A stretch of DNA of 32,448 nt. Origin: an uncultured Methanosarcinales archaeon (GTDB lineage: Archaea; Nanobdellota; Nanobdellia; Woesearchaeales; GW2011-AR9). Below are positions 1 to 19,432 of the stretch, piece after piece (within the stretch, counting starts at the first letter, position 1; every line of letters begins with the position of its first letter). The stretch covers positions 1-32,448 of the forward strand of contig CAZOPZ010000004.1 in NCBI GenBank assembly GCA_964582035.1, written 5' to 3'. The notes below the pieces were generated by a model that was not told the origin of the DNA, did no database searches, and saw only the letters and a program-made list of their open reading frames with translations. A program made the translations under genes and the position numbers.

Positions 1-64
1 TATATTCGCGCAAATCGGGAATCTGGACGGCGGTTGGAATTGCGATTGGTAACTTTATTCACAT

Positions 65-328
65 TTGACAAACATTCTTAGTCCAAAGGCCTCATTATTT
101 TTCGCAAGTATTTTCGCAACAGTAATGTCAGCTGGTGCTCCATTTTGGGTTGTTGTATTCCTATGGATTGCAATGCCACTTAATTCATTTATTATGGCTG
201 CAATTCTTTCGATGTTTTTCACTCAGAAAAAGATCAGAACTGCTTATGGAAAACACCAGCATATCGTAAACAAAGTTCTGGGAGTAGCATTGCTTGTACT
301 TGCAGTGATTATAGCGATTTACAAATAA
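65..328 (+). CDS. LysE/RhtB-family amino-acid exporter, C-terminal part. The gene runs off the 5' window edge and shows a frame break near 63-67.
   Basis: The ORF reads TNILSPKASLFFASIF (an NPK-type LysE motif) followed by hydrophobic helices. Bases 3-65 in a different frame read SGIWTAVGIAIGNFIHI, which continues the same family directly upstream. Confidence 0.5.
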   Translation: MTNILSPKASLFFASIFATVMSAGAPFWVVVFLWIAMPLNSFIMAAILSMFFTQKKIRTAYGKHQHIVNKVLGVALLVLAVIIAIYK

Positions 329-567
329 AGATTACTGGGATATTGTTTTCTGATTTGTAGAAGCGAAACGCCTCCCCCTCCGTTTTTAATAGGAAAACCC
401 CCACTTATAGTGTAACAGTTCTGTGTTTCATCCTTGCTGGTTTCGAGTAATAATTCAACTTAACTCCTATTAACCTCATTTTGCCTAGTTCTTGGAAAAA
501 TTGAGGGTATGAGGGCTGTAAACGAACCCATACCTACGAAAAGCGTTCTTCCTGAAAAGAAAGAAAA

Positions 568-771
568 TCAGGGCTTTTCACCCCAATAACTAATAATGCA
601 GTTGTTGTTTATCTGCATCATGTACTTTGCCCAGTATTCTGCAGCATACAGCCGCTTCTTCAAGGCTGGAGAGATGTTCGCATAGGCTGCGATAATCCGC
701 ATCTCCCGGCACAAGCTGTCCAGGATTTCCTGGTTGGTCTGCATGACCTGTTCGTATGGTTTTTCTTGCAT
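568..771 (-). CDS. Hypothetical small helical protein (67 aa)
   Basis: ATG start preceded by AAAGGTGATGAACC, which resembles a Shine-Dalgarno site. The composition looks helical. It overlaps an alternative-frame ORF (590..1045) that looks less protein-like. Confidence 0.3.
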   Translation of the reverse strand: MQEKPYEQVMQTNQEILDSLCREMRIIAAYANISPALKKRLYAAEYWAKYMMQINNNCIISYWGEKP

Positions 772-940
772 GGTTCATCACCTTTTTGGTTTTTTCTCTC
801 ATTTTGGCGCAGACGGGCTGAGGTGGGTTCTCGCTTCCCAGCGAAAGCAACCATCTGTCCCTCGAGTCCCCGTACGAAAACAAAAAAGGGAAGAGATGAA
901 CGTGCAGAAAACATCGATAGAATAGGGAAAATATGGCAAC

Positions 941-965
941 CACTGGACATGATGCTTGTCCAGTG
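941..965. repeat. Perfect inverted repeat CACTGGACA-N7-TGTCCAGTG; candidate recombinase core or operator site
   Basis: Read directly: cactggaca (941-949), tgatgct spacer (950-956), tgtccagtg (957-965). It lies about 120 nt upstream of the tyrosine recombinase ATG. Confidence 0.9.
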
Positions 966-1016
966 CTAGAGGACGTATATTCTGAATATCTTTGACTTTT
1001 AGCCTGTGAAAAGAGC

Positions 1017-1034
1017 CACTGGACACACTGGACA
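1017..1034 (+). repeat. Tandem direct copies of the same 9-mer CACTGGACA (x2)
   Basis: cactggaca occurs at 1017-1025 and again at 1026-1034, 50 nt upstream of ATG 1084. Confidence 0.9.
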
Positions 1035-1083
1035 GCTGCGGGCAAAGCTCATAAACAACATCTTTCATTGTAGCAGTAAGAAG

Positions 1084-1962
1084 ATGGACATTTCACATAT
1101 GATTGTAAAAGAGGGCTTGCGCAGAGGATTAAGCCCCCGGACGATAAAGACGTACTGCTCGTGTGTTGAGCGCTTTTTCCGGCGGACACACAAAGATCCG
1201 TATTCGATGAAAAAAGAAGATATCTTGGCATTTTTGGATGGCCTTATTGAAAAGAATGCTCCTGGCAATACAACAAATGTATATGTGCACGCACTGAAAT
1301 TCTTCTACGAGCGAGTCTTGCATCGTCGGCTTACTCTCAATATTCCTCTCCAGAAAAAGCCGCGGCGATTGCCGGAGTTTCTGAATAAGGAGGAAGTCGC
1401 TCACGTATTACGCACGATAGAGAATGCGAAGCACCGGCTCCTTGTTTCTTTGCTCTATGGTGCGGGCTTGCGGGTGAGTGAAGTTGTGCATCTGAGAATA
1501 AGGGACTTTGACTTTACCGGCAATTATGGTTGGGTACGTCAGGGAAAAGGAAGAAAAGACCGCTTGTTTATTCTTCCCCAAGCATTGAAAGAAGAGCTGC
1601 TTGCCCATATTGCCAAAGAAAGTCTTGCTCCCGACGACTGGCTTTTCCAAGGCTGGCATGGCCATTTTTCGACGCAAAGCGTTCGGCAGATCCTCAAAAA
1701 AGCGTGGCAGAAAGCCCAATTGCAGAAGAGAGTCCATCCGCACATGTTCCGGCATTCGTTCGCGACGCATCTCATTCAGAACGGCTATTCCGTGCTTGAA
1801 GTGCAGCCGTTGCTCGGGCATAGCAAGATAGAGACGACGATGATTTACCTGCATCTCGCAGCCCCACAATTGTTAAAAGTGCAGAGCCCGTATGATGCGT
1901 TAGCTCAAAAATCGCTTGCGGTGCCGGATGAAAATACAACGAGTAAAGTATCGGGACATTGA
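1084..1962 (+). CDS. xerA: Tyrosine recombinase, XerA/XerC/XerD-like
   Basis: Catalytic signature present: GAGLRVSEV (Arg), HMFRHSFATHL (H-x-x-R), LLGHSKIETTMIYLH (His/Tyr). There is an N-terminal SAM-like core-binding domain. The start was moved from the track's GTG 1006 to ATG 1084, giving 292 aa, the typical size. Confidence 0.9.
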   Translation: MDISHMIVKEGLRRGLSPRTIKTYCSCVERFFRRTHKDPYSMKKEDILAFLDGLIEKNAPGNTTNVYVHALKFFYERVLHRRLTLNIPLQKKPRRLPEFLNKEEVAHVLRTIENAKHRLLVSLLYGAGLRVSEVVHLRIRDFDFTGNYGWVRQGKGRKDRLFILPQALKEELLAHIAKESLAPDDWLFQGWHGHFSTQSVRQILKKAWQKAQLQKRVHPHMFRHSFATHLIQNGYSVLEVQPLLGHSKIETTMIYLHLAAPQLLKVQSPYDALAQKSLAVPDENTTSKVSGH

Positions 1963-3124
1963 ACAGGTTCCCCATCTTCAAGTACAGCAGCAGTTCAAGC
2001 AGGATTTTCAGGGTTCTGCTCCTACGCCATTTATCGGTCGGTTTGGCTATCCGAAAGTCAACATCGGCATTCTCAGCCCGCAGTTTCTGGGAGACGTCAG
2101 CAGCTACGATTCGCCGCGGCAGTGGAGCGCTCAGAATACGTCCATCGGTGATGTCGCCAGCCGGCGGTATAGCTTGGTCAATTCCCGGACCAGCTGGAAT
2201 GTTAAGCAGGTTCAGCAATCGCATCGTTTCCTCGATATTGTCAAAGAGGTCGGCATGGCGAAACGCAGTGTTGATGTGGAGGTCAGCCTGCAAAAGCAGC
2301 CCAAACTCAATGTAAAATCCGAACGAGAGATTATCCCCTTCGGGCCCGCTTCCGAGATAAAAAGCGCCCAGCTGACGGGAAATCCTGCTGTTGATTCCCG
2401 TGCTGAGCGGGTGGTTGCGGATACGGGCTTAAAAGCTGCTCCAGCGCTCCTGCAGCTCTATCGGAAAGGCTTTGAAGAAAATTTTCTGACAAAACTGATA
2501 TCGACAGCTAATGTGGGCTTGCAGCAGAGCCGCAAGCTCGTTCCGACGAGATGGAGCATCACTGCTGTCGACGATACTTTAGGAAAACAGCTCATTGTGG
2601 AAGTGAAAGATTTTCCTATTGGGGAATATCAAGCCTATTTCGGCGGCGGCTGGGGGAATTACTATTTGGTTTTATTCTTCCCGGCGGTCTGGAGCTATGA
2701 GCTTTTTGAGACATATCTCAATAAAGTGGCCAATCCTTGGTCAAAGAACGGCTATCAGTATTCGACGGATTTTGAAGGGTTTGAAGGCCGGAAAACGTAT
2801 GCGGAAGAATGTGCTGGTGGTTATTATGCCGCCCGGCTTCCCGTCTTGGAAAAGATGAAAGAGCTCAAGCGGCAGCAGGCCTGTTTAGCATTGCGCTTTA
2901 TAACGCCAGAGTACAACGTGCCGCTAGGCGTCTGGGTGTGCCGGGAAGCGGCGCGGAAGAGCCTAGCTGGGCAGGCATTATGTTTTTCATCGGAAGAATT
3001 ACTGCTGGCCTATGCCCGCGCCTTGGCAAAGAAGAAATTTTCTTTTGATCTGAATCTGCTCTTATCGACGAGCAAATTGCTCAAAGAGAAGAAAGAACAG
3101 AAACGGTTAGGGGAGTTTGGCTAA
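1928..3124 (+). CDS. nreA: Archaeal NreA-type (DUF650/DUF651) DNA-repair protein with a C-terminal PIP box
   Basis: GSAPTPFIGRFGYPKVNIG and the overall layout are typical of the Nre family. The C-terminus QKRLGEFG fits the PCNA-interacting motif Q-x-x-L-x-x-F. The gene overlaps the xerA 3' end by 35 nt. Confidence 0.75.
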   Translation: MKIQRVKYRDIEQVPHLQVQQQFKQDFQGSAPTPFIGRFGYPKVNIGILSPQFLGDVSSYDSPRQWSAQNTSIGDVASRRYSLVNSRTSWNVKQVQQSHRFLDIVKEVGMAKRSVDVEVSLQKQPKLNVKSEREIIPFGPASEIKSAQLTGNPAVDSRAERVVADTGLKAAPALLQLYRKGFEENFLTKLISTANVGLQQSRKLVPTRWSITAVDDTLGKQLIVEVKDFPIGEYQAYFGGGWGNYYLVLFFPAVWSYELFETYLNKVANPWSKNGYQYSTDFEGFEGRKTYAEECAGGYYAARLPVLEKMKELKRQQACLALRFITPEYNVPLGVWVCREAARKSLAGQALCFSSEELLLAYARALAKKKFSFDLNLLLSTSKLLKEKKEQKRLGEFG

Positions 3125-3804
3125 CTTTCCTCTTTCGGCTCTTCAGGTTTTTCATACGGCTCTCTCTGGGGCTGTGCCAGCTGAAACGCTTCTTCATTCA
3201 GCACGCCCAGATGCCGCAAGCCCCGGTAATGGCCATTGTAATCTAAGCCGTAGCCGACGACAAATTCGTCGGGGATGAGAAAGCCGAGATAGAGGGGATG
3301 AGCAGCAAGCTGTTCTTGCAAGCCGGGCTGGTGCCGTTCCGGCTTGGCCAGCAGTGCGGCAATGCTGGTGCTCTTTGCGCCATGCGCTGCCAGTTTTTCC
3401 AGGGTGGCCAGCATCGTTGTTCCCGTATCGATGATATCTTCGACGATGAGAACATCCCGGCCCCGGGCTTTTGAAAAATCAAAACCGGAGAAAGTGACCT
3501 TGCCGGTCGAGGCATCTCCTGCATAACTTTTGGCTTTCAGGGTTTCCACTTCAAAGCGGACTTTCATCGGCTCGCTGTACAGCAATTCCACAAAGAAGCG
3601 CATCGCGCCGTCCAGCATGCAGAGCGCAATGATGTCTTTTCCATTATAATCCGCCGAGATCTCTTCTGCCAGCCGGGCAACGCGTGACGTCATTTGGCCT
3701 TCCGGGAGAAGAATGCCGGATAAATGGCTGCGATACGCCTCATCTACCGCAAACTGGTCGACAGAGTAAGGAATTTTTCTTTGCAGGCCGATAGGCGATG
3801 ACAT
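3121..3804 (-). CDS. hpt: Hypoxanthine/guanine phosphoribosyltransferase
   Basis: PRPP-binding loop VLIVEDIIDTGTT and the flanking HPRT-like sequence. The start was trimmed to ATG 3804, which lies 25 nt downstream of a minus-strand ATTTATAAAA box. Confidence 0.9.
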   Translation of the reverse strand: MSSPIGLQRKIPYSVDQFAVDEAYRSHLSGILLPEGQMTSRVARLAEEISADYNGKDIIALCMLDGAMRFFVELLYSEPMKVRFEVETLKAKSYAGDASTGKVTFSGFDFSKARGRDVLIVEDIIDTGTTMLATLEKLAAHGAKSTSIAALLAKPERHQPGLQEQLAAHPLYLGFLIPDEFVVGYGLDYNGHYRGLRHLGVLNEEAFQLAQPQREPYEKPEEPKEES

Positions 3805-5983: not shown

Positions 5984-7147
5984 TCAATGCACCCTTCGCT
6001 TCCGTCGTAATCGTTTAACAACTTTCATTACTCTCCCCTGCGCCCCAAACCGGCTTTCCCAGAGCAGGCGCCGTATAATGGCCTCTTTGGCCAGAAATCC
6101 TTTTATCTGTTTTCCTCTCTTTATCGGCAGGACGTCCAGGCGGAGCTGCTGCATCTGTTGCAGAGCCTGGTATGCATTGTCGTTTTCCGCAAAGCTGCGC
6201 ATATGGTGCAGGGGCCTGGCCAGGTCTTTTACTGATAGTTTTTCCTGCTCTTCTTGGCTTATACGGAGGTCGTGGACATCCAGAAGGCCCACAAAGCTTT
6301 TTCCCCGAATGAGAAAAACATCCTCGTTCAATGGTGCGTACCGTCGGGCGAATTGAGAGAATTTCAAATCTGCGGGGGCAGTCGGAAGATTTTTCTTTGG
6401 CAAAGAGCTCAGGGGTATCTTGCTTAAGATCTGCTTGACAATAACCTGCTCATAGCTCATGCCCGCCAGGAAATACAGGAATCCGCCGAGCAAAATAAAC
6501 CATAAGCCGCCGGGAACGAGCAGGACAATGCCAAAGAAGTTCATGATTCCTTCGATAACCAAATAGCCAGCAAAAACTCTGCCAGCAGTGGCAGCGATGC
6601 GCGTGGCTTTTCTCAGGTCTTTGTAGTGTGCATGCAGCAAGGCGCGGAAGGCCCTTCCCCCATCCAAGGGAAATGCGGGCACTACGTTGAAAAGCGCCAG
6701 GACCAGGTTAATGAACGCGAGATAATAGACGATAGGATGCCACAGGCCATCGACGGTGAGCTTAAAGATGGCATAAAATACTCCTGCTAATCCTAAAGAG
6801 AACAGTGGCCCGGCGATAGCCATCAGAAACTCTGATTTTGGCTCCATATCTTCACGGGTAATGCCAGCTACGCCCCCGAAGAAGAAGAGGGTAATGCTTT
6901 CGACTTTGATTTTTCTGGTTTTGGCGACGAGGGAATGGCTGAGCTCGTGCAGCAGGACGGAGGTAAAGAGCAGGAGGGCTGCCACAATGCCCATGAACCA
7001 GTACTGCTGGCTGGAAAAGCCTGGGAATTGCTGCGGGAAAAAGCCTTCCCGAAGGCCCCAGGCCAGGAGAACGAAAATGAACCACCACGTAAAATGGATT
7101 TTTACATCGATGCCAAAGATGCGGAACAACCGCAAGCCACCGTCCAT
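5984..7147 (-). CDS. M50 site-2 protease (RseP/SpoIVFB-like) with a C-terminal CBS pair
   Basis: HELSHSLVA (HExxH), NVVPAFPLDGGR (NxxPxxxLDG), multiple transmembrane helices and a CBS-like C-terminus. The start was trimmed to ATG 7147 (MDGGLRLFRIFGIDV). Confidence 0.85.
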   Translation of the reverse strand: MDGGLRLFRIFGIDVKIHFTWWFIFVLLAWGLREGFFPQQFPGFSSQQYWFMGIVAALLLFTSVLLHELSHSLVAKTRKIKVESITLFFFGGVAGITREDMEPKSEFLMAIAGPLFSLGLAGVFYAIFKLTVDGLWHPIVYYLAFINLVLALFNVVPAFPLDGGRAFRALLHAHYKDLRKATRIAATAGRVFAGYLVIEGIMNFFGIVLLVPGGLWFILLGGFLYFLAGMSYEQVIVKQILSKIPLSSLPKKNLPTAPADLKFSQFARRYAPLNEDVFLIRGKSFVGLLDVHDLRISQEEQEKLSVKDLARPLHHMRSFAENDNAYQALQQMQQLRLDVLPIKRGKQIKGFLAKEAIIRRLLWESRFGAQGRVMKVVKRLRRKRRVH

Positions 7148-17269: not shown

Positions 17270-18151
17270 ATGGAAAAGCTGGAGGCACTTCTCATGACAT
17301 CACACACAACAGACAACAACTCCCCACACGATATAAATTGGTTATATGCAGCAAAAAACTTTGTTCATTACATTACTCTAAAAAAACTTGAACAACCTAA
17401 AAGGGCAAAAGCAATAAGGGAATTATCTGAACTTCTAGAATCTACAGCAAAAGAAACTGCTTTAAGACTTTCAAGTTTAGGCGACTCTTTAGAGGATGAA
17501 GAAACTGATACTATGCCACCTGAAATAGATACTATTATTTCTGAAGCGTATGATAAAATTATGTCCGAGGCATCAAGAAAATATGATGAATATCAATCTA
17601 TGAAAGCTCTTACAAAAGATGAAGAAGCTGATTTTAATGAATTCATAAGAAAATTTGTAAAAGAAGATCTTTATGCGTGGATCTATGACGTTGGGGAAGA
17701 ATTGGTCGCAGAATCAAATCTTCAGTTACATGTTGCAGCGGATGAAGATAAACGAAAACATGCGGAATATTTAGCTTCTGCAGGGATAAATACTCCCGAA
17801 GGACAGGCTGCTTGGTACGTTGCACATTTTGCGGGCACATCACTCTCTAGACTTTTTCGCGGTTATACAGGTAGTGGTATAACGTTTACAAATGAAGTAA
17901 AAGCAACTAAAGATCAGTTTAATCTGTATTTACACATTGCCCTGGCGGAAGGGTTTGCATGCGCAAAGGAAACAGCTATTATTGCAGACCCAGATAATTC
18001 CAGAGAGGCTGTAAAACAATGGTTACGTTCGGAGATTGAATATAGATTATCAAAAGGACTTGAATTTAATCTACTTGAGAACGTAAGCATCAAACAAGAT
18101 CAAGATGGATCTATTCACTTAAGACCAGAAAGAAGACCAGATCCATATTAG
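17270..18151 (+). CDS. Hypothetical protein (293 aa) in an AT-rich islet
   Basis: ATG lies 24 nt downstream of ATTTAAAAAT. The ORF is long with no competing frames. No family was recognised. Confidence 0.65.
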   Translation: MEKLEALLMTSHTTDNNSPHDINWLYAAKNFVHYITLKKLEQPKRAKAIRELSELLESTAKETALRLSSLGDSLEDEETDTMPPEIDTIISEAYDKIMSEASRKYDEYQSMKALTKDEEADFNEFIRKFVKEDLYAWIYDVGEELVAESNLQLHVAADEDKRKHAEYLASAGINTPEGQAAWYVAHFAGTSLSRLFRGYTGSGITFTNEVKATKDQFNLYLHIALAEGFACAKETAIIADPDNSREAVKQWLRSEIEYRLSKGLEFNLLENVSIKQDQDGSIHLRPERRPDPY

Positions 18152-18298
18152 GATTCTAATTTCCGTCTCCTTCCTACATCCGTCCACTTTTATGGTCATA
18201 CGAGTGGAAGTTTGCCGAAAAAAGATGGTTTTGCAAAGTTCCTTTTTGTGTTTTCTTCCAGCGCCAGTTTTTTAAATACGAGGCATTTTTCTCATTTC

Positions 18299-19432
18299 AT
18301 GGACGTCGTTGACCTGACAAAAAAATTGATTGCCCTGCCGGCCATCTCTGGCAAGCTTCTCCATTGGAATGATAAAGAGGCTTTACATGCCCTTTTTGAA
18401 CAGGGCGGTTACGATGTGCAGCCTCTGGAAATAGCCGGCGATGCAGCCCATCATGATTCCTATCATTTTCTCGCCACGAAAGGCGATGCGCCAATACATC
18501 TTGCCTTCCTGAGCCATTATGACGTTCTTCCTGCCGGCGAAGGCTGGGTTTCCGATCCATATCTCCCACGGGAAGAAAACGGCAATCTCTTTGGCCGTGG
18601 TGTTGGCGTGAAAGCCGGATTGGCTGCCCAACTCTTGGCAGCAGATGAGCTGGCAGAAAAAGGCCTGCGCGTTTCTTTGTTTATTTCCGGAGATGCGCTC
18701 ACCACCTCTTTAGGCATGGCCGAACTGCTGCAAAAGAATGCTGTCTCCATTGACTATGCACTGGGTGGAGAACCGACCAGCCGGGAGAAAAGCGGCGATA
18801 CCATTATCGTCGGCAGGCGGGGCGTCATTCAGGGTGATATTACTCTCCTCGGCAAAGAGGGCCATGTCGCCTCTGCTCCAGGTGAAGACAATGTGAACCA
18901 TCAGCTTTGGAAAGTCTTGCGCATATTAAGCCCGACGTTTTACGGTGAAACGGAAGACTTTGCGGCTTCTGAATTTCACTTGACGGGCATCGCTTCTGGA
19001 GGAAAAGCCTATGATCGGGTTCCGGCATCTGCTACGGCTCGTTTTGATGTCCGCCTTTCTCCCTGCATGGCAAATACAGAATTTATCTCCTTACTGGAGA
19101 AAAAAGTACAGCATGCTACGAAGAACGGATTCCCCGCGCAGGTAACCTTCAAAAAAAATATTCCGTATTATCATACCACTGATCAGCCATACTGCACTCT
19201 TGTTGCTGAAGCGGTTACCGAAATCCTTGGCGAAGCGCCTGCGTTCAGTACTGCAGGCGATATGTCTGAAGCCCGTCATTTTGCAGCCCAGCATATTCCC
19301 GTAGTAGAGCTAGGGGTTCCCGCAAGAAATCTTTATGGTGCAGATGAGCATGTAGCCCTTGCTGAGATACGGCGGTTACAAGAATGCTATGTCCATATTG
19401 GCGAAAAATTGCTCGAAGGAAAACAGAAATAA
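18299..19432 (+). CDS. M20-family peptidase homologue (DapE/ArgE-like) with apparently degenerate metal and catalytic motifs
   Basis: LSHYDVLPAGEGW (HxD), GGEPTS and the C-terminal GADEHV are retained. The GRGxxDxKG motif reads GRGVGVKAG and the DEE motif reads SGDA. ATG 18299 lies 25 nt downstream of TTTTTTAAATAC. Confidence 0.8.
   Translation: MDVVDLTKKLIALPAISGKLLHWNDKEALHALFEQGGYDVQPLEIAGDAAHHDSYHFLATKGDAPIHLAFLSHYDVLPAGEGWVSDPYLPREENGNLFGRGVGVKAGLAAQLLAADELAEKGLRVSLFISGDALTTSLGMAELLQKNAVSIDYALGGEPTSREKSGDTIIVGRRGVIQGDITLLGKEGHVASAPGEDNVNHQLWKVLRILSPTFYGETEDFAASEFHLTGIASGGKAYDRVPASATARFDVRLSPCMANTEFISLLEKKVQHATKNGFPAQVTFKKNIPYYHTTDQPYCTLVAEAVTEILGEAPAFSTAGDMSEARHFAAQHIPVVELGVPARNLYGADEHVALAEIRRLQECYVHIGEKLLEGKQK

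Follow-up and report, generated by a model that had tools for sequence, protein, structure and literature searches.

A nine-base box upstream of a XerA-like recombinase gene as part of a promoter-linked, probably regulatory module of DNA-repair and recombination genes in Woesearchaeales

A palindrome in front of an integrase-like gene is readily taken for a recombination site, but is it one? The question is raised by the window analyzed here, 32,448 nucleotides that form the first part of contig C4 in the metagenome bin of an archaeon of the Woesearchaeales (1.15 Mb in 80 contigs), in which four copies of the 9-mer CACTGGACA precede the gene of a XerA-like tyrosine recombinase. An earlier note on this DNA had seen in the palindrome the geometry of a recombinase core site and had offered three readings of the repeats: the recombinase’s own substrate, an autoregulatory operator or the junction of an integrated element. 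We argue that the four 9-mers are, with good probability, the two halves of a long-form, promoter-linked regulatory module of the Woesearchaeales that is read by a putative factor, probably an activator. The misreading that a palindrome beside an integrase gene invites is thereby corrected; our string and keyword searches of the literature found no description of the element. Where genomes, contigs and loci have to be told apart we use our own handles (G, C and L numbers; the genome of the window is G000).

The four copies lie exactly where the earlier note had placed them, at 941-949 (+), 957-965 (-), 1017-1025 (+) and 1026-1034 (+), and a scan of the 32-kb window found no further exact CACTGGACA; by chance about 0.25 exact copies are expected per 32 kb on both strands. 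Copies 1 and 2 make up a perfect 9-7-9 palindrome, and copies 3 and 4 a perfect 18-nt tandem, 51 nt downstream. Together with the core promoter, which has its transcription factor B (TFB) recognition element (BRE) ahead of the TATA box, the parts of the module are as follows.

941-965 (+): putative distal operator, the palindrome CACTGGACA-TGATGCT-TGTCCAGTG, whose right arm (957-965) is the better kept half
966-1016 (+): 51-nt spacer of the long-form module, consisting of GCTAGAGG, an A/T-rich middle and TTTTAGCC
1017-1025 (+): upstream half of the proximal box, CMC-N4-C-N through the order and here another CACTGGACA
1026-1034 (+): TATA-proximal core box CACTGGACA, the order-wide invariant element
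1035-1047 (+): 13-nt linker GCTGCGGGCAAAG, with conserved A, S, T, n, C, G, G ... A, in the place of the BRE
1048-1055 (+): TATA box CTCATAAA, 36 nt ahead of ATG 1084

The distance of 36 nt between TATA box and ATG compares with 29-31 nt in ordinary promoters of this genome. Because orthologues of the recombinase align from MDIS... onward and the TATA box falls inside the frame opened by GTG 1006, ATG 1084 is the true start, as the earlier note had preferred. An Rfam scan of window positions 1-3300 gave no match.

The 9-mer is by no means private to the recombinase locus. Across the 1.15 Mb of the genome there are 17 exact copies of CACTGGACA, against none for the reversed control, and 16 of the 17 fall into six clusters, every one of which contains the exact 18-mer tandem (chance expectation ~3e-5); the earlier note had itself held that recurrence of the 9-mer through the genome would speak against a recombination site. 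In each cluster the 18-mer is followed by G-NN-GCGGRYAGAG and then by a TATA box (TTTATATA and TTTAAATA, with CTCATAAA at the recombinase locus), ~30-100 nt before a start codon, and the looser genomic matches (up to 2 mismatches) are noise inside open reading frames (ORFs). Contigs of the source metagenomes stack on positions 1015-1045 while their flanks to either side are unrelated, which is the signature of a short repeated core. The six clusters head the following operons.

Operon 1, in the window (+): tyrosine recombinase and nre
Operon 2, on C21 (-): small KKFRAG-motif protein and radA
Operon 3, on C44 (-): 40-aa peptide, 46-aa peptide and YrdC-like protein
Operons 4-6: three paralogues with a Bro-N domain, one of them followed by radC

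The two free-standing LAGLIDADG genes of this genome (C6:17910 and C50:4397) are both without the box, which tells neither for nor against a LAGLIDADG/WhiA-like protein as the factor.

The combination of box and core promoter extends through the family and the order. Allowing at most 1 mismatch, box-N13-TATA occurs in all 81 family genomes and all 58 genera (929 matches vs 182 for the reversed control), and in an order-wide census of 151 Woesearchaeales genomes drawn from 136 families the exact CACTGGACA-N13-TATA occurs in 118 (564 vs 8 matches). Orthologous promoters, those of radA, the recombinase, peptide-YrdC and hef, keep the box while neighboring bases drift. When the tandem was searched for with no constraint on TATA, 31 instances were found in 10 genomes of 8 genera, and in 31 of 31 a TATA-like, A/T-rich octamer begins exactly 13 nt after the tandem. 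The element has the marks of an operator: a fixed position relative to the core promoter, several copies at related genes and conservation across species.

A position table of 158 modules locates the conservation between -9 and +21 around the proximal 9-mer and reads CMC-N4-C-N, CACTGGACA, A-S-T-n-C-G-G-n-t-A; the perfect tandem of this genus is therefore the local version of a bipartite box. The upstream half-box is uniform within one genome and different between genomes, as in these variants.

G011: CACTGGACG-
G041: CCACTCCCG-
G058 and G087: CACACCCCA-
G057: CACAAACC-CACTGGTCA

Such concerted change within a genome suggests co-evolution with a trans-acting factor.

The distal half of the module is likewise held in register. 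Among 156 distinct modules, 28 of the 31 inverted half-sites begin exactly between -71 and -69, counted from the TATA-proximal box, the left arms of the distal site stand at -84 to -88, and 22 of the 28 long forms belong to recombinase, radA or peptide-YrdC promoters. This genome has three palindrome-type sites (C4, C21 and C44), of which the radA copy is degenerate; at radA and peptide-YrdC the palindrome-like site lies 53 nt upstream of the tandem, the gap being 51 nt in the window. Across modules the distal arms are 7-8 nt apart with differing spacer sequence, the left arm being degenerate in many cases, and the blocks GCyAGAgg ... AAAATTT ... TTTCAGCC of the long spacer recur at the radA, peptide-YrdC and recombinase modules of G000, G001, G002 and G012. 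From the center of the palindrome to the center of the tandem is 73 bp, or 7.0 helical turns. With an integral number of turns and a bendable spacer, the arrangement fits cooperative binding of two units.

What kind of genes does the module serve? We took 100 further sites from nine genomes, 96 of which have the module at the expected place, and classified the first downstream ORF, the family names having Pfam support and the assignments being made in part from N-terminal sequence.

LAGLIDADG nucleases: about 16 of the 96 modules
Bro-N proteins: about 9
42-aa peptide operon (peptide-YrdC): 8, one per genome
Hef: 6
KKFRAG-radA operon: 6
Recombinases: 5
RadC: 4
Lhr-like helicases: 4
ORF6N or KilA-N-like proteins: 3
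Hjc: 3
UvrA: 2
Nre, a PolB-like gene and a DNA methyltransferase: 1 each
Remaining first genes: no family given

This is the make-up expected of a repair and recombination regulon that has been joined by selfish genes.

Two of the recurrent operons have features of their own. A peptide of 40-52 aa, MVDLTxRTIKRLFEKQVRDLT...FDFQLSGGW, opens, in all genomes examined, a box operon that also encodes a 46-aa peptide and a YrdC-only protein (G000:C44 7709-7825 (-); L030, L033, L009, L122, L155, L172, L186, L194, L210 and L214), and its C-terminus may be related to the PCNA-interaction motif, which it resembles minus one residue. The KKFRAG/radA operon has a conserved 5' leader of ~100 nt (G000:C21 about 7000-7130 (-); also in L021, L032, L010, L017, L124, L138, L185, L204, L217 and L159), comprising a hairpin in which changes are compensatory, the Shine-Dalgarno-complementary box CCTC(A/G)C and the invariant TTGAAATAAAA-GCGAAAGCAA; the leader may constitute a second, translational layer of control. 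The word GCGAAAGCAA, which the radA leader has in common with window position 840, is not enriched genome-wide. For the KKFRAG protein, the AlphaFold2 (AF2) model has a predicted local distance difference test (pLDDT) score of 63 only and a beta4-alpha topology; the PC4 fold considered for it received no clear support from fold and sequence searches.

How might such a module work? In the mechanism that we propose, the TATA-proximal box (1026-1034 with its upstream half 1017-1025), joined to the core promoter via the conserved 13-nt linker, would be bound by one putative sequence-specific DNA-binding factor, which would read the box at about 6-20 promoters per genome, mainly those of DNA-repair and recombination genes plus those of selfish nuclease genes. 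Here the module would drive the recombinase-nre operon, with the palindrome at 941-965 as a distal auxiliary site. The bound factor would exert positive control by helping to recruit TFB and the TATA-binding protein (TBP) to promoters without a normal BRE, and a second copy of the factor at the palindrome would stabilize the first by cooperative contact across the bent, A/T-rich spacer. In this genome, ordinary promoters are for the most part leaderless and show an A-rich BRE, MRAAA at -7 to -3; ranked among 211 of them by BRE score, the module promoters come in the 4th-5th percentile, which is the level of random sequence, and the recombinase promoter in the 22nd. The missing BRE at module promoters, combined with the single TFB gene per genome, makes an activator docking beside the BRE position a good fit. 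Protein binding, the sign of control and looping are what we infer from these patterns, and a DNA-damage trigger is what we infer from gene content only. As to sign, we lean slightly toward positive control and hold a repressor to be rather unlikely.

Several points weigh against the module as we read it. All genomes compared are metagenome bins, and the pattern used in the large censuses included the TATA-like octamer, the register having been tested independently by the 31 tandem instances only. The spacing of the upstream half-box varies (7-9 nt), a poor fit to a rigid dimer, and a repressor could just as well use a site beside the BRE. Since many module genes encode selfish nucleases or Bro-N proteins, something other than DNA damage could be the trigger. 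Finally, no cognate factor was found among the candidates tested. For LexA, the S24 peptidase family PF00717 has matches in 0 of 13 genomes, the same search being positive in 9 control genomes. As for a WYL-domain regulator of the PafBC or DriD kind, this genome and 10 of 12 relatives have no WYL domain. A second Orc1/Cdc6 can be set aside, the genome having a single Cdc6_C match and origin boxes (TTCCATAGGAAATAGGGGGG) unlike CACTGGACA. An alternative TFB that reads the element as an extended BRE was rejected because there is one TFB gene per genome. The protein orf67, considered as a divergently encoded regulator, is a helical hairpin that is present in 19 of the 81 family genomes and always beside a recombinase; no other recurrent divergent genes were found near the modules. 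The recombinase itself has too narrow a distribution. A separate observation concerns the single orc1/cdc6 gene: upstream of it (G000:C12 about 17560-18460) lies an AT-rich, origin-like region with short tandem repeats and inverted boxes of the origin recognition box (ORB) type, TTCCATAGGAAATAGGGGGG and GTTCATTTCCTATGGAAAA.

Two of the alternatives keep the element and its factor and change only how they are used. Under negative control, a LexA-like repressor beside the BRE would block TFB, the palindrome would aid a loop and damage would release the factor. The gene content, which resembles a bacterial SOS regulon down to the tyrosine recombinase and the Bro-N genes (presumably comparable to E. 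coli DinD), lends this some support, as do the TATA boxes, which are near consensus, and the two phased operators, whose separation of 7 helical turns is typical of repression loops. The box, however, lies wholly upstream of BRE and TATA, in no case overlapping the TATA box or the start site. Since the BRE region is no better than random sequence, such a promoter would be weak once derepressed, and the LexA-type S24 peptidase is missing from the 13 genomes; on balance we think repression possible but rather unlikely. The trigger might instead be the cell cycle or replication, in the manner of an MCB/E2F-like S/G2 program, given that Xer-like dimer resolution, Hjc, the PolB-like protein, RadA and Hef are needed in every round of replication too. 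UvrA, RadC, Nre and the Bro-N genes fit damage repair better, and the core replication genes cdc6, mcm and pcna were not seen among the 96 modules; we judge a replication trigger to be unlikely.

Further alternatives were weighed. One takes the palindrome for a dif- or att-like core site of the adjacent recombinase (hereafter type 1), as difSL lies beside xerS, and treats its likeness to the box as secondary. The 9-7-9 geometry, which can also be drawn as 11-bp arms with one mismatch, the full retention of the catalytic residues of the recombinase and the presence of an inverted half-site at the same place in 10 of the 32 modules found in type-1 recombinase loci all accord with this. A scan for a canonical dif elsewhere counts here with reserve only: it left a single dif-like 11-6-11 inverted repeat, C1:15184-15211 (CAAAAACATAATGCGGGTTATATCTTTG), the best in the genome, and its core recurs so often in these AT-rich genomes that conservation could not be judged. 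Yet about two thirds of the orthologous recombinase loci have no such site, including both loci of G014, a genome with two type-1 genes and no palindrome; the earlier note had regarded absence of the palindrome from orthologous loci as evidence against a core site. Palindromes in the same register stand at radA (degenerate) and at peptide-YrdC, 28 of the 156 modules having one overall, the spacer is variable, three genomes (G026, G029 and G039) have 6-11 exact boxes and no type-1 recombinase, and no joints at 941-965 were seen in the contigs of four metagenome runs. Spacers of 6-8 bp occur in the wider family of Xer/dif sites. The dif site has 11-bp arms and a 6-bp spacer and occurs once per chromosome, in the termination region; in archaea it is not adjacent to xerA and agrees with the bacterial dif consensus in 14-18 of 28 bases (PMC2958812). 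The likeness of our element to Xer/dif, inverted arms around a short spacer beside an Xer-family gene, is superficial only, since the arms here are of 9 bp, the spacer is of 7-8 bp and several copies per genome occupy fixed promoter positions of unrelated operons. The recombinase-substrate reading is not supported, and we consider it very improbable. Nor do we find support for the junction of an integrated element: window positions 451-3200 are collinear with the sister species G001 and G002 at 86-89% identity, the gene is mostly single-copy, and around the locus we found neither direct repeats flanking an island nor a step in GC content at the site. That a domesticated recombinase binds the box, regulating itself and the regulon, would make sense of the four half-sites in its own promoter and of the tolerance for inverted or direct copies at variable spacing, tyrosine recombinases binding 9-11-bp arms as monomers in either orientation. 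But the box is order-wide and type 1 nearly confined to one family, the 98% complete genome G007 has ~20 box matches and only broken or distant recombinase genes, and the intact catalytic residues argue for an active enzyme; we consider this reading highly improbable. Of the autoregulatory operator suggested in the earlier note, the operator is supported, as a regulon-wide site 13 nt upstream of TATA, and autoregulation by the recombinase is not. The module might, finally, be a promoter cassette that moves or is copied, with duplication or gene conversion as the means of spread and no dedicated factor: only about 30-105 nt are common to the loci, with unrelated flanks, contigs break at the copies, and selfish nuclease genes often bear the module. 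Against a cassette, the box has been retained at orthologous promoters in more than 100 families, with their surroundings drifting, the 9-mer is invariant with its register to TATA fixed, and the upstream half co-varies across all sites of a genome, as expected for co-evolution with a trans-acting factor; we find a cassette highly unlikely.

If the regulatory module is taken as the basis, a broader proposal can be made, on which our judgment is evenly balanced: an order-wide, SOS-like repair and recombination regulon in the Woesearchaeales (DPANN), marked by the near-invariant CACTGGACA box and governed by a factor unrelated to LexA, Orc1-2 or WYL proteins, in which the core operons would have the phased looping site and the short form would have been captured by selfish genes. 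The ancestral core operons would then be radA, the Xer-like recombinase with nre, and the 42-aa peptide with the YrdC-like gene. It has long been asked whether archaea have an SOS-like response, and to our knowledge the Orc1-2 circuit of Sulfolobales is the only DNA-damage network described in archaea.

Comparison with known systems helps to define what is particular about the module. Its closest functional analogue is the bacterial SOS system of LexA and SOS box, in which integron integrases too are under LexA control (PMC3108266): in both, one short operator stands at recA or radA, at uvrA and at other repair and mobile-element genes, and a tyrosine recombinase is wired in. Unlike the SOS box, the element belongs to an archaeal BRE/TATA promoter and is fixed 13 nt upstream of TATA, without overlapping the promoter; the 13 genomes encode neither LexA nor an S24 peptidase, and control is probably positive here. 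The closest archaeal analogue is Orc1-2/DDRE (the DNA-damage-responsive element) of Sulfolobales, in which a short hexanucleotide promoter motif of damage-response genes is read by an extra Orc1/Cdc6 paralogue (PMC6061795). The two systems have in common a short promoter motif shared by repair genes and a dedicated factor, putative here, whereas only one Orc1/Cdc6 is encoded in this genome and radA belongs to the core of the present module. Upstream activating sites beside BRE and TATA are familiar from other archaea, as those of Ptr2, GvpE and TFB-RF1. Like these, the box lies directly upstream of a weak BRE, in fixed register and with repeated half-sites; unlike them, it is order-wide, is found at repair genes and has an extra phased distal site 7 helical turns away. 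The mycobacterial PafBC system, with its RecA-independent promoter motif, and DriD of Caulobacter exemplify LexA-independent activation of repair genes by WYL-domain proteins. The PafBC motif, which we take to be tTGTCRgtg, loosely resembles TGTCCAGTG and is a lead only; the distribution of WYL domains given above sets our module apart from PafBC and DriD.

Should the proposal be true, it would describe a second, independent archaeal solution, with the box at radA, hef, uvrA, hjc, nre and the Xer-like recombinase across more than 100 DPANN families, and, for these genome-reduced organisms, a first described regulatory network. A recombinase wired to radA would couple dimer resolution to recombinational repair. 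What the window adds is the phased distal palindrome as part of the module, core membership of the type-1 recombinase-nre operon, the order-wide count and the negative results for known regulators. As the cis element is defined to the base, a culture-free search for the factor is feasible. For annotation, the box predicts start codons and flags the 42-aa peptide, the KKFRAG protein and orf67 as candidate repair-function proteins.

The genes around the module in the window are these.

1084-1962 (+): type-1 XerA-like tyrosine recombinase, 292 aa (Pfam PF00589, 3e-38; PF13495)
1928-3124 (+): nre, archaeal NreA-type DNA-repair protein (Pfam Nre_N 3e-68, Nre_C 9e-27; NCBIfam NreA 2.8e-77)
568-771 (-): orf67, 67-aa helical-hairpin protein, divergent partner of the recombinase and outside the operator

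The recombinase has the integrase fold, and in it the catalytic R-K-H-R-H-Y are all present, with invariant R130, K155/K158, H220, R223, H246 and Y255. It scores 216.5 bits against the NCBIfam XerA model NF040815 (cut-off 220) and 210 bits against the integron-integrase-like profile TIGR02249. A second XerA-like paralogue (type 2, C27:181-909) is without the box and, at 214.6 bits, also remains under the XerA cut-off of 220. Type 1 (at least 47% identity) occurs in 18 of 24 family genomes, mostly as a single copy, and is nearly absent outside the family; type 2 is order-wide and more widely distributed. A forward module lies upstream of 31 of 39 type-1 loci (from different species) vs 0 of 13 type-2 loci. 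About 20 of these 31 modules are direct (51-65 nt from the ATG), 5 have a tRNA gene between module and recombinase, and 6 have another gene there. The nre gene overlaps the recombinase gene by 35 nt, and we read the two as one operon; in G011, nre has its own box.

The sister species differ at this locus in several ways. Between the module TATA box and the recombinase gene they have a tRNA-Leu(UAA) gene with a 31-nt intron (L036:2426-2555 and L034:554-761), and G001 has a further insertion there. In this genome the tRNA gene is cleanly deleted (window about 1056-1083), as contigs of three runs support, and no other tRNA-Leu(UAA) was found in this 91%-complete assembly. In G002 the type-1 recombinase gene falls into two frames (C120:2846-3722; L031/L036), as a pseudogene or through an assembly error.

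The earlier note had seen no convincing gene in 329-1005, the stretch that in fact holds orf67. This gene, read from 771 to 568, has a Shine-Dalgarno sequence, a terminator-like hairpin at 587-567 and 18 clusters of homologues, all from Woesearchaeota. The homologues are of 65-71 aa, and the AF2 model (pLDDT 92) consists of two long helices; there is no Pfam family and no significant fold match for the protein. It adjoins recombinase genes in at least 10 species, those of type 1 and in some genomes more distant types, always as the divergent neighbor of a tyrosine recombinase gene, and more likely assists the recombinase than acts as the factor of the regulon. Farther left, the synteny with the sister species ends at about 451, next to a fragment of a LysE-like gene (window 1-451). 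The LysE-like gene is broken: a stop at 66-68 ends frame 3, and from 65 on the match to Pfam LysE runs in frame 2. This leftmost segment has a GC content of 38% and many strain variants among the metagenome contigs.

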